Shown here: one piece after another, positions 14,304-17,960 of the stretch | How positions within the stretch are numbered: position 1 is the stretch's first letter | Layout: every line of letters starts with the position of its first letter | Source: a virus | Lineage: Duplodnaviria > Caudoviricetes | Virus record (IMG/VR): IMGVR_UViG_3300047275_000117 | Span: 1 to 34,263 of that record | Length of the DNA stretch: 34,263 bases | Direction: 5' to 3' (one strand) | Made by a program: the position numbers and the translations under genes | Notes under the pieces: model-generated | The model's input: the letters and a program-made list of their open reading frames with translations, nothing else | Databases searched by the model: none | What the model was told of the DNA's origin: nothing

Positions 14304-14515
14304 GTGTTCATCCTCTTTAGTCTTGATTCAATATCTTCAATTCCAACGTAGCCAAGTGCTTTCAAGTATTTCTTCTCACCGTCCGTAAAACCAACCCATT
14401 CACGCTTATCGGATCGAATCTTCTCAACAAATTCCAGTACATGATCGTAGCTTGCGAAGATAACCGCACCGTCGTCGCCAAGTATGCAGTAGTCGTTTAC
14501 TAGTTCGTCAATCAT
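14300..14515 (-). CDS. Hypothetical protein
   Basis: Start at the ATGA overlap (14515); C-terminal KREWVGFTDGE...IESRLKRMNT resembles a common small phage early-gene ending. Confidence 0.6.
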   Translation of the reverse strand: MIDELVNDYCILGDDGAVIFASYDHVLEFVEKIRSDKREWVGFTDGEKKYLKALGYVGIEDIESRLKRMNT

Positions 14516-14760
14516 AGCCATACCCCCATCACACATTTTGAATACTTCTTAGCCAGTTTTGCAGGAGCCTCTGGCTTTTGGGTCATGTACCACCATGCCA
14601 TGCGCTCCGTCCCTTGATCCGTCACCCGTCGGATGATCTTGTTTTCCAGTTGCAGCTTCAATAGTTGCTTGCTGACCTGACTTCTACCGACCTTAAAGTG
14701 CGCCTGGATGTCAGTGATCGTCCGAGGTTTGTAGCAATACTCAATCAGTTGTTCGTACAT
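14512..14760 (-). CDS. Small winged-HTH-like protein
   Basis: 82 aa; PRTITDIQAHFKVGRSQVSKQLLKLQLENKI. Confidence 0.6.
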   Translation of the reverse strand: MYEQLIEYCYKPRTITDIQAHFKVGRSQVSKQLLKLQLENKIIRRVTDQGTERMAWWYMTQKPEAPAKLAKKYSKCVMGVWL

Positions 14761-15151: not shown

Positions 15152-15667
15152 TTAACTCGCAAGGGACACCTTCCTTTCGTCTTTAGCGGCAGTGATCTTC
15201 GAGAGTGCATCCTGATCCCCGCTAAACTGCCTTACCGCAGCCTGGAAGACCGTCTGTAGGGTTGGGATGTTCGGAGCCGCCAGAATCGCTTCTATAGCCT
15301 TAGAGGGGTCAGCTTTAGGTTTGCTTTGTTGATGCACAGCGTTTTGGACTTCATTGGCGCTGGCGAACTCTGTCCCTCCAAAGCCTGCTGCTGCTAAGCA
15401 CCGACCGATTGCTGATGTCTCTGCATTTTCAAGGGCAGAGGTTTGATTGATCTGAGATGCCTTGCGCTTCTCTTCTGCGTGACCAGTTGCGATGACTCGA
15501 TTGGTCTCATTCAAGATGGTCGCCTTCATGACCACTTCATTTTCGTCACGAAAGACGATCTCGGTTGTAATCGACCAGTCTGGGTGCTTCTCACGAAACT
15601 GTTGAACTCGGAGTGCAACCGTCATGTACTCTTTGCCACGAATGTTTACGATACCTGTGTTTGACAT
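15152..15667 (-). CDS. Single-strand annealing protein (Rad52/Sak-like)
   Basis: GKEYMTVALRV..FR..HP, ATGHAEE, SALENAETSAIGRCLA, ASANEV; AGGAG RBS; YqaJ exonuclease elsewhere in the genome. Confidence 0.65.
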   Translation of the reverse strand: MSNTGIVNIRGKEYMTVALRVQQFREKHPDWSITTEIVFRDENEVVMKATILNETNRVIATGHAEEKRKASQINQTSALENAETSAIGRCLAAAGFGGTEFASANEVQNAVHQQSKPKADPSKAIEAILAAPNIPTLQTVFQAAVRQFSGDQDALSKITAAKDERKVSLAS

Positions 15668-16120: not shown

Positions 16121-16480
16121 ATGTCACCCACACAACGAAGCCTGAAGTACCTAAAAGAGCAGGGCATGAAGCCTTGGGTCTGTGAGTACTGGAACTCGTT
16201 TGCCAGGAAGAGGGTTGACTTGTATGGGTGTATAGACATCTTAGCCATAGGCAACGGGGAGACCTGGGCGGTACAGACTACTAGCACAGGCGTGTCTTCA
16301 AGGGTCAAGAAAATTCAAGAGTCCGAGTACTTCCCTGCAATGCTGGAGTCTGGCTGGCGGGTCTTCGTCCACGGCTGGAGCAAAAATACAAAGGGAGAGA
16401 TGAAGCATCGGGTTGTGGAGTTGACGAGCGAAAATTTGTTGAGTAGTATTGACCATGTTGGGAGTGACGCCCCAGCATAG
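16121..16480 (+). CDS. PD-(D/E)XK-like small nuclease (resolvase-like)
   Basis: PTQRSLKYLKEQG...DLYGCIDILAI...AVQTT...VHGW; restriction-endonuclease-like pattern. Confidence 0.6.
   Translation: MSPTQRSLKYLKEQGMKPWVCEYWNSFARKRVDLYGCIDILAIGNGETWAVQTTSTGVSSRVKKIQESEYFPAMLESGWRVFVHGWSKNTKGEMKHRVVELTSENLLSSIDHVGSDAPA
16421..16449 (+). promoter_or_regulatory. sigma70-type promoter driving the structured RNA region
   Basis: TTGACG (16421-16426), 17 nt spacer, TAGTAT (16444-16449); a hairpin begins at the predicted +1 (~16455). Confidence 0.65.
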
Positions 16481-16497
16481 TGTGGAGACCAGATGAG

Positions 16498-16578
16498 AAC
16501 CCTTTAGCGGGGGCTTGATACGCATGATCTCCACCATGCTGGCCTGTCAAGCCCGAGCCTCCACTAGAGGGTTTTTTT
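16498..16578 (+). ncRNA. C4/CI-like antisense RNA or attenuator element
   Basis: Nested stems 16498-16507/16564-16573, 16511-16520/16545-16554, 16522-16526/16535-16539. Loop ATCTCCAC is complementary to GTGGAGA at 16482 and 16711. Followed by a U-tract. Confidence 0.6.
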
Positions 16579-16584
16579 ATTTCT

Positions 16585-16830
16585 AGTCGTACTCCTCACG
16601 TTAGCAAGAGCTTGAATCGGCTGCGAGGAAGAAAAGACACCTTATGCGTACACCCTGCATCAAGGTTCCAGCCTGTCAGCGAGGGACTGGAGTAGATTGA
16701 GAGACAAGCGGTGGAGACCAACTCTCAGTTGAATGAATCGCTGCCTTATGGGTTATCTAGGTTGAGTGTTATTAAGTTCTGCTGGTGTTAGCAACTGGGA
16801 TCAGGTGGGCTTCCACCCTTGGGGGAGCTA
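16585..16830 (+). ncRNA. Putative structured RNA upstream of the replication gene
   Basis: No credible ORF; consecutive hairpins and a possible pseudoknot (CAGCGA 16677-16682 / TCGCTG 16738-16743). Confidence 0.45.
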
Positions 16831-16851
16831 TGTCTAAAAAAGGAGAAGAAG

Positions 16852-17241
16852 ATGGAATTTGAAGATTTCTGGAAGGAGTACCCGAGAAAGATAGCAAAGG
16901 GGGATGCAAGAAAAGCCTGGGCGCAAACAGAGAAGGTCAGGCCAGACATACAGACCATCATCAAAGCAATAAAGGCAGCAAAGCAGACAGATAGCTGGAG
17001 GGAGAACGGAGGCAAGTACATACCCTATCCAGCGACATGGTTAAGAGCAGAGAGATGGGACGATGACTACGGGGTGGAGCTAGAGAACACCGTAGAGATA
17101 GAAGGCAAGATTGTTAACTGGTGGGAGAGTGCCACCGGAATAGAAAAGAAGGGCAGGGAGTTAGGACTCAAGCCTGAAGACTTCCCCAGCTTCCCAGACT
17201 TCAAAGCAGCGGTTATGCGACAGTCTATGAGGGCGGCATGA
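16852..17241 (+). CDS. Replication initiator/replisome-organiser C-terminal domain (helicase-loader-like), no N-terminal HTH
   Basis: ATG 16852 with AGGAGAAG RBS; FEDFWKEYPRKIAKGDARKAW...YIPYPATWLRAERWDD starts at residue 3. Confidence 0.7.
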   Translation: MEFEDFWKEYPRKIAKGDARKAWAQTEKVRPDIQTIIKAIKAAKQTDSWRENGGKYIPYPATWLRAERWDDDYGVELENTVEIEGKIVNWWESATGIEKKGRELGLKPEDFPSFPDFKAAVMRQSMRAA

Positions 17242-17960
17242 ATGAGTTGGCTCTTTTCGCAGGCGCTGGCGGAGGAATACTTGGGGGACATCTCCTTGGA
17301 TGGAGAACGGTCTGTGCAGTCGAATGGGAACCCTACCCAGCAAGCGTACTTGCCGCCAGACAGAATGACGGCATTCTCCCGCCTTTCCCGATTTGGGATG
17401 ACATACAAACCTTTGACGGAAGACCGTGGCGAGGAATTGTTGATGTCGTATCTGGAGGCTTTCCATGCCAGGACATCTCAGCCGCAGGTAAAGGAGCAGG
17501 GATCGACGGAGAGCGATCAGGAATGTGGCGAGAGATGGCGAGGATCATTCACGAAGTACGACCCAGATTCGTCTTCGTGGAGAACTCACCAATGCTCACT
17601 AGCAGGGGACTTGGAACTGTTCTCGGAGACTTGGCCTCGATGGGGTTTGATGCGAGATGGGGAGTGTTGGGAGCAGCCGATGTTGGCGCTCCGCATCAGC
17701 GAGACAGAATCTGGGTCAAAGCAAAAATGGACAACACCAACGGCTCACATGGCAAAGGAAACAAATGCACCATCAGAGTCGGAACGGAATACGCCAACAC
17801 TTGCCGCACAAGCTGGTGGGAAGTTGAACCCGATGTGGGTCGAGTGGCTGATGGGGTGGCCTGTCGGATGGACAGACTTAAAGCCACTGGAAATGGACAA
17901 GTTTCAAAAGTGGCTAGACGAGCATGGGAGGCGCTAGGTGAAGCACATCCTCACACATGA
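17238..17960 (+). CDS. C5-cytosine DNA methyltransferase, catalytic (alpha-like) chain
   Basis: Motif I LFAGAGG, IV GGFPCQD, VI FVENS, VIII HQRDRIW, X RLKATGNGQV; no motif IX in this frame. Confidence 0.9.
   Translation: MNELALFAGAGGGILGGHLLGWRTVCAVEWEPYPASVLAARQNDGILPPFPIWDDIQTFDGRPWRGIVDVVSGGFPCQDISAAGKGAGIDGERSGMWREMARIIHEVRPRFVFVENSPMLTSRGLGTVLGDLASMGFDARWGVLGAADVGAPHQRDRIWVKAKMDNTNGSHGKGNKCTIRVGTEYANTCRTSWWEVEPDVGRVADGVACRMDRLKATGNGQVSKVARRAWEALGEAHPHT
17242..17937 (+). CDS. Overlapping +1-frame protein, probable second (beta-like) chain of the C5 methyltransferase
   Basis: 231 aa open across almost the whole MTase gene; WTTPTA and GGKLNPMWVEWLMGWPVGWT (motif IX-like); its stop abuts the next gene start at 17938. 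Confidence 0.75.
   Translation: MSWLFSQALAEEYLGDISLDGERSVQSNGNPTQQAYLPPDRMTAFSRLSRFGMTYKPLTEDRGEELLMSYLEAFHARTSQPQVKEQGSTESDQECGERWRGSFTKYDPDSSSWRTHQCSLAGDLELFSETWPRWGLMRDGECWEQPMLALRISETESGSKQKWTTPTAHMAKETNAPSESERNTPTLAAQAGGKLNPMWVEWLMGWPVGWTDLKPLEMDKFQKWLDEHGRR

Follow-up and report, generated by a model that had tools for sequence, protein, structure and literature searches.

How does a phage start to replicate its genome when it carries no recognised helicase, primase, polymerase or DNA-binding initiator? The question is raised by the DNA analysed here (the window, 34,263 nucleotides), the record of a 34-kb virus about 95% complete, with portal, terminase, capsid, lysis, recombination and methylase genes. 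Public runs with matching sequence were mainly freshwater metagenomes; no RNA run was among those listed and two runs labelled as RNA gave no contig, which speaks neither for nor against expression. An earlier note on this DNA had reported that primase, helicase and polymerase genes were missing, and none was found among the 48 ORFs scanned in the window. Its statement that helix-turn-helix (HTH) proteins were missing as well holds for HTH_36 and DUF1376, neither of which occurs in the window, but a weak winged-helix-like ORF of 82 amino acids does exist on the minus strand at 14512-14760 (Pfam E 0.017-0.046, below the cut-off), and its product might serve in regulation or as a partner in origin binding. 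Small genes similar to this ORF also lie near the RNA described below in relatives. The reported lack of iterons was borne out, 16401-17300 containing only three repeated 9-mers, none of them tandem within the gene.

A trace of a replication initiator is a gene at 16852-17241 (+), preceded by the ribosome-binding site (RBS) AGGAG at 16841-16845 (+) and encoding a protein of 129 amino acids. The earlier reading of this protein as an initiator C-terminal domain (CTD) only was supported by a match to positions 178-253 of phrog_270 (E 1.2e-19); the C-domain begins at residue 2, and the N-terminal winged HTH (DUF1376, HTH_36) is absent from the protein. Residues 1-72 make up the domain homologous to initiator C-terminal domains, followed by a C-module at residues 88-129. 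Homologues fell into 202 clusters of 70-226 amino acids, mostly 125-150 among the matches listed, and the long ones bear HTH_36, DUF1376 or phage O N-termini. Judged from these comparisons, C-terminal initiator domains that lack an N-terminal HTH form a genuine family, to which the 129-amino acid protein belongs. Its structure was predicted with a pLDDT of 87.7, and a wide structure search ranked the helicase loader SPP1 G39P first, with a modest score (1no1; Z 5.3, rmsd 2.1, 57 aligned) not well above unrelated entries. The C-module is weakly SAP/LEM/Rho-N-like (Z about 3.5). A Foldseek search of the model against the PDB gave no match, and the ESM Atlas returned unnamed clusters only.

Upstream of this gene, at the start of the rightward early operon, lies the non-coding stretch to which the earlier note had drawn attention. 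Every sequence that it quoted was found in place, and the gap is real, but it extends over 16481-16851 (371 nt) rather than about 430 nt. The predicted sigma-70-type promoter that was said to belong to it (16421-16449, +; TTGACG-17-TAGTAT, 9/12 consensus match) is located inside the end of the upstream gene and by itself is at chance level, as a consensus scan found two promoter-like sites against 2.1 expected; in its favour, relatives have a TTGACA-type -35 plus a -10 at the equivalent position. The upstream gene (16121-16480, +; 119 amino acids) is a conserved neighbour of the cassette, the same gene standing upstream in L001, L003 and L013. Its product, which had no PHROG or Pfam match, we take from its motif to be nuclease-like, of the VRR-NUC/PD-(D/E)XK type.

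The region from 16588 to 16826 (+), designated hereafter as B1, was compared with homologues found by an 18-nt pattern. The search covered under half of the viral collection and gave 119 loci, four of them chance matches (L095, L097, L142 and L207); about 260 viral stretches are estimated to match the pattern. The B1 alignment contained 71 homologues with a mean identity of 59%, nine of 80 with long insertions having been left out. Covariation, the check proposed in the earlier note, was strong, with 45 pairs arranged as 11 helices, of which four cross, and 96.0% canonical pairing. The covariation score of this structure, derived from the same alignment on which it was scored, was 0.486, compared with 0.140 +/- 0.006 for shuffled alignments and at most 0.116 with partners slid, and double changes were present in 29 pairs. 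Mutual-information pairs of the same alignment were nearly all canonical. The invariant positions of P3 carry no weight since P3 was fixed by the search pattern, and the structure as a whole rests on covariation and not on folding energy, 16580-16830 folding no better than shuffles (z +1.36). It is close to certain that B1, a multi-pseudoknot element of about 240 nt absent from Rfam, is a new structured RNA family.

The 5' domain of B1 (16588-16638, +) is made up of P1a (16588-90/16598-600), a crossing helix (16593-96/16626-29) and P1b (16608-12/16619-24), with tertiary pairs 16614-16638, 16617-16637 and 16618-16636; judged by eye, it is shared with another candidate family, B5. The stem first proposed at 16594-16629 is thus real, but it crosses the small helix 16588-90/16598-600. 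Hairpins that had been read at 16639-66, 16667-91 and 16698-727 are likewise conserved, and covariation defines P3 (16668-74/16683-90), P4 (16695-703/16722-30) and the pseudoknot 16677-82/16738-43 within 16668-16743 (+). This CAGCGA/TCGCTG pseudoknot, also foreseen, was paired in 71/71 homologues with double changes in three of its six pairs, and its 3' partner, which is free of the search pattern, tracks every change. A local hairpin suggested at 16804-16817 could be formed in only 17/80 homologues and is not a conserved pairing. Its CCACC (16813-17) instead pairs with GGTGG (16710-14) in 70-71 of 71 homologues, switching between G-C and A-U in 25, as part of a covarying long-range helix on the plus strand (16710-16821) in which the P4 loop (GGUGG 16710-14 and 16718-20) is joined to the 3' end (CCACC 16813-17 and 16819-21). 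A G-run (16821-25, +) follows just past this pairing. The P2 hairpin (16639-16666, +) carries CACC in its loop in 78/80 homologues and offers a second possible partner, so that CACC sequences at the P2 loop and at the B1 3' end are rivals for the single GGUG loop; we infer that this competition would suit a switch leaving the RNA 3' end on DNA. No long direct-repeat covariation beyond the invariant CACC was found in B1.

These pairings dispose of a reading that the earlier note had named as able to refute it, in which the gap is a decayed or frameshifted HTH-coding segment with hairpins arising by chance. The minimum free energy of 16580-16830, no better than that of shuffles, would agree with it; however, stops occur in every reading frame of the gap and no frame encodes an HTH, more than 200 protein clusters share the same short length, and covariation far above the controls rules it out, leaving it scarcely credible. 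Concerning the active strand, G-U outnumbered A-C in B1 pairs (144 vs 19, or 73 vs 19 without the search-pattern-fixed pair, which accounts for 71 G-U), and the plus strand is therefore favoured.

The cmscan search recommended in the earlier note assigned the window to no Rfam 15 family at the gathering threshold (including RF02932, C4, ARRPOF, GEBRO and PAGEV), and cmscan of 20 B1 loci gave tRNAs and one sub-threshold match only. BLASTN of the region and its relatives against GenBank phages and PLSDB plasmids returned nothing except one weak match, and PLSDB had none for B1; there is thus no cultured carrier and no plasmid evidence for B1. A description of B1, or of an RNA that replaces half of a phage initiator, was not found in the literature, survey supplements being only partly searchable. 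Supplement files 3-6 of PMC10690425, to the extent that this survey is open to searching, contained no B1 motif match, and the 10,000 candidates that it leaves unnamed may include B1.

Between the promoter and B1 is a second element, designated module A (16456-16578, +), which has the form of an attenuator-like leader. Its folding energy, calculated for 16456-16580, was far better than that of shuffles (z -5.07). A 5' hairpin (16456-16478, +) displays the loop GUGACG (16464-16469), and a long branched terminator-like stem (16495-16578, +) carries the loop complement UGUCA (16545-16549) on top and ends in a 7-U tail (16572-16578). Loop and complement change together among phages (GTGAC/TGTCA, GTGGCA/TGCCA, GTAGGAA/TTCCTAC and GTGAGA/TCTCAC), and in a crude automatic test own loop-complement pairs had 5.26 matched bases vs 4.33 +/- 0.10 for swapped ones (n=88). 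The U-tract was found upstream of B1 in 64/79 homologues, and module A accompanies the B element even where the following gene has its own promoter, so that it most likely gates B itself. Contigs from two runs part exactly after the U-tail, as would be expected if B modules are swapped there. Where the earlier note had placed an antisense control element, no separate antisense gene was found, and a crude consensus scan detected no minus-strand promoter in 16450-16850; control of the cassette seems to be located in module A. No Rfam match was obtained for module A in the window or the 20 B1 loci, C4, c4-2 and c4-a1b1 included. Extra hairpin RNAs or tRNA genes occur between module A and B1, or just before, in L146, L106, L128, L108 and L093.

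Could the element act as DNA? An origin folding as single-stranded DNA, as a site for helicase or primase assembly, would have an identical replication context, and covariation does not tell RNA from single-stranded DNA, as noted in the accessible sections of PMC5737381. Against this, a dedicated promoter and terminator-like leader travel with the element (64/79). Dense pseudoknots and lone tertiary pairs, both present here, are also more typical of RNA, and we consider the DNA reading quite unlikely.

The genes found next to B1 are more varied than the earlier note implied when it described the RNA as feeding this initiator. Only 10/49 B1 contigs (6/15 near-complete) encode the protein family of the window. 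Among 50 distinct B1 loci, 17 lie upstream of ParB-helicase(-primase) genes (the primase of G002 read by eye), five upstream of a second C-domain gene with a P-like gene, four (five counting L159) upstream of the window's protein and nine upstream of a capsid gene; the remaining 15 have, within 1.8 kb, different replication neighbours or none, L159 being one of these, with a CTD gene missed by the ORF filter. HTH_36 proteins were present in 5/50 B1 records, mostly capsid-context phages, and seven B1 phages retain an HTH-type protein or full initiator, G214 and G048 having B1 plus a complete conventional initiator. In G031, B1 is present and no loader, helicase or initiator was recognised in the ORFs scanned. 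Origins are not bound to one position and a phage may have two of them, but the ill-fitting contexts keep two further readings alive.

In one of them, B1 is a free trans-acting ornate phage RNA that rides operon heads, with GOLLD/ROOL-like behaviour, and the truncation of the initiator is otherwise explained. The placement of B1 in front of genes for capsid, terminase and tail, at the ends of operons, close to tRNA genes and alongside the full initiators of G214 and G048 would suit a free RNA, as would its closed fold, which captures its own 3' end; GOLLD and ROOL are themselves described near tRNAs and in prophages in the available text of PMC5737381. Such an RNA would leave unexplained why two unrelated initiator families lost HTH and repeats right behind B1, why five interchangeable RNAs occupy one slot and why the RNAs are distributed as detailed below (57/59 vs 0/84), and we regard it as rather unlikely. 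In the other, B1 is a cis-acting regulator of transcription or translation, for example an antiterminator comparable to put RNA or a leader of the downstream operon. It does stand at the start of an early operon, after a promoter and a leader of terminator-like form, and in the window it ends 15 nt short of the RBS, yet its pairings never include the RBS, and B1 frequently has a new promoter or inserted genes after it, or else convergent genes that leave no target (L108, L146 and L133), which makes a regulator unlikely.

A cis-acting role at the origin is suggested by comparing truncated with full-length initiators. Profiles detected one of five RNA families near 57/59 CTD-only loci vs 0/84 loci with full-length initiators, truncated loci and loci with <1200 nt upstream being left out. 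The 57/59 count is redundant, draws largely on a single phage clade and is partly circular, those loci having supplied four of the five RNA profiles; as most of the 84 controls belong to other phage lineages, kinship could be a cause of this difference. Exactly one of four RNA markers was present at 51/57 CTD-only loci with at least 1.5 kb upstream, and the remaining six comprised four with the candidate RNA B6, one with a B5-like variant and one with nothing. B6 (about 250 nt, behind module A) lies about 1240-990 nt upstream of the CTD gene in L036, L048, L051 and L056. Eight whole genomes with full-length initiators, seven of them of one clade, lacked all RNA families and module A. The cultured phage P19250A has no gap in this slot, which is filled by an N-terminal domain and repeats that are fused to the C-domain (gp40). 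Among 28 CTD-only records, HTH_36 was found in none and DUF1376 in one, inside a second complete module. No recognised RNA was found near the CTD-only genes of L064 and the Bordetella locus L375. B2 (L009, L038 and L041) and B5 (L022, L037, L075 and L023; G-rich 3' end) are, like B6, uncatalogued candidate RNAs.

The second C-domain gene mentioned above encodes a stand-alone domain of 92-96 amino acids and starts 102-116 nt after B1 in seven contigs (about five distinct phages), and is followed by a lambda-P/G39P-like gene (Atlas 0.94). This domain has no BLAST similarity to the 129-amino acid protein of the window and belongs to a different initiator family, whose full-length forms (G214 and G048) have no RNA in front. 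The idea that an RNA replaces the DNA-binding domain thus gained from the near mutual exclusion with full-length initiators and from the truncation of a second C-domain, but B1 is not tied to one protein. More distantly, a CTD-only gene occurs in MW202674 (L209) together with module A and a divergent B1 (E 2.6e-5), and in two unrelated elements, L366 and L370, a promoter and a non-coding stretch of 350-450 bases precede CTD-only genes or lie near them. At L209 388-640, GenBank places several tiny minus-strand CDS over module A and the divergent B1.

One of the five slot RNAs is the Rfam motif Betaproteobacteria-1 (RF02932), which in relatives is flanked by the same leader upstream and the same CTD-only gene downstream. 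Its sequence and fold differ from those of B1, and the window has no RF02932 match. About 330 stored viral stretches are estimated to match the pattern used for this sister RNA, 91/120 fetched being true. Betaproteobacteria-1 runs about 90 nt beyond its Rfam model, and its strongest signal is identity, not pairing, of a loop-displayed stretch and the 3' end, a covarying direct repeat with 5.9/7 bases alike vs 3.0 +/- 0.18 when swapped (n=56, near-duplicates included). B1 carries no such variable repeat. No consistent complement of the repeat was found from -250 to +150, which suggests the DNA template strand as its simplest partner, the alternative being a protein-bound tandem site. A C-domain gene was near 12/40 Betaproteobacteria-1 loci (all short), and a primase-helicase, identified by eye, at four. 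A search for RF02932 in 151 genomes of one order gave one match, with replication genes absent nearby. At L378 1380-1700 (-), Betaproteobacteria-1 lies in a bacterial genome, and no gene within 1.5 kb of it was recognised as related to replication or to phages.

Taken together, these comparative data make it reasonably probable that the two-part RNA cassette is a cis-acting replication origin which replaces the winged-helix domain and iterons and is dosed by module A; the truncated protein then likely keeps only the job of recruiting the host helicase. Transcription from 16421-16449 would either halt at the U-tail, giving a short A RNA, or read through, the latter when base pairing joins the 5' loop of module A to the complementary stretch of the terminator. 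Once released, A RNA may act in trans by pairing with the loops of nascent transcripts, which would determine dose and incompatibility. Upon read-through, B1 would fold co-transcriptionally, and its 3' end (CCACCC-UU-G-run) would stay on its own DNA, since either the P2 loop or the displaced DNA strand can take the place of the RNA tail as partner of the P4 loop. The resulting R-loop would open the A-rich spacer and may supply a primer, and the C-domain protein would load the helicase there; in other phages this step may be carried out by a C-domain protein with a P-like loader, or by a phage helicase-primase. The cumulative GC skew of the window has its minimum at 15242, the point where gene direction switches. 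At four-fold sites the skew of genes co-oriented with the RNA is lower in the window, opposite to the prediction, and higher in 10/11 other B1 records (one tie), both comparisons being confounded with gene class.

Replication from a structured transcript has precedents. ColE1-family replicons use an RNA II primer and an antisense RNA I; like them, the cassette has a structured transcript proposed to stay on the template and start replication, dose control through loop-loop contacts between RNAs and a G-run near the functional end. It differs in that control lies in a terminator-type leader on the same strand instead of an RNA from the opposite one, a phage initiator is retained in truncated form, and B1 is about 240 nt long, pseudoknotted and has no Rfam match. 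P1 c4/P4 CI systems are similar to module A in having a loop and complement that covary between phages and are coupled to a terminator, whereas the window has no tRNA-like processed RNA and module A gates an RNA, not an antirepressor gene. Lambdoid and other replisome-organiser initiators (DUF1376 or HTH_36, repeat linker and C-domain) have a homologous C-domain in the same slot, with an N-terminal domain and repeats where the window has the RNA cassette.

Among origins that dispense with a Rep protein, those of MRB plasmids are described in the accessible portion of PMC3035462 as having two complementary RNAs, no Rep protein and a distribution in Vibrionaceae plasmids only; they resemble the cassette as origins without a full Rep, and their small RNA sets replication control and incompatibility. 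Among the features that mark ColE1/MRB origins, a conserved RNA structure in the origin region is seen in the covariation of B1, while the absence of a Rep protein is not, a truncated initiator gene standing behind the RNA. Cluster A mycobacteriophage origins, as far as the consulted part of PMC7157519 goes, are without repA, express RNAs and are interchangeable with a protein-based module; they differ in being used with parABS by plasmid prophages of actinobacteria, no residual initiator domain is described in that part, and they have no sequence match to the B1 cassette. ARRPOF, GEBRO and PAGEV are structured motifs of 223-349 nt linked to plasmid replication regions, according to the sections of PMC5737381 at hand, which mention no link to truncated initiators; they belong to plasmids, not phages, and gave no Rfam match to the window. 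The cassette resembles RNA-based replicons (MRB, cluster A, ColE1) in its way of working yet is not one of them: it retains a remnant of the protein, shows no sequence match and has yielded no opposite-strand RNA.

A more specific version of the origin model, possible but doubtful, is an RNA-guided initiator in which loops pair with both strands of their own DNA at the RNA 3' end and so open the origin as a guide RNA would, the helicase being loaded by the C-domain once bound to this RNA-DNA complex. No fewer than five unrelated folds would have converged on this task, and a change of guide would move the origin. Just as tentatively, the guide loops might be the direct repeat of Betaproteobacteria-1, for the template strand, and the P2 and P4 loops of B1. 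Whatever its function, B1 adds a new, densely pseudoknotted RNA class. If the origin model is true, it would explain how replication starts in a very large freshwater phage group without helicase, primase, polymerase or DNA-binding initiator, would mean that on at least two occasions RNA assumed the role of a single initiator protein domain, and would provide the first functional hypothesis for the orphan motif Betaproteobacteria-1; a programmable origin would also be a useful tool. As the cassette is <900 bp, the origin claim is directly testable.

Variable cargo is found between the RNA and the CTD gene in L015, L023, L036, L080, L392 and L399, including HNH-like, queuosine/7-deazaguanine-like (by eye) and methylase genes, and from these sequences the 3' flank of the RNA looks like an insertion hot spot. 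In the window, two long overlapping same-strand frames, 17238-17960 and 17242-17937 (+), both match PHROG families labelled as methyltransferases. Stand-alone DUF1376 genes of 106-113 amino acids, apart from the initiator, are located right after a Cro-like gene in L227 (6136-6456) and L500 (1013-1354).
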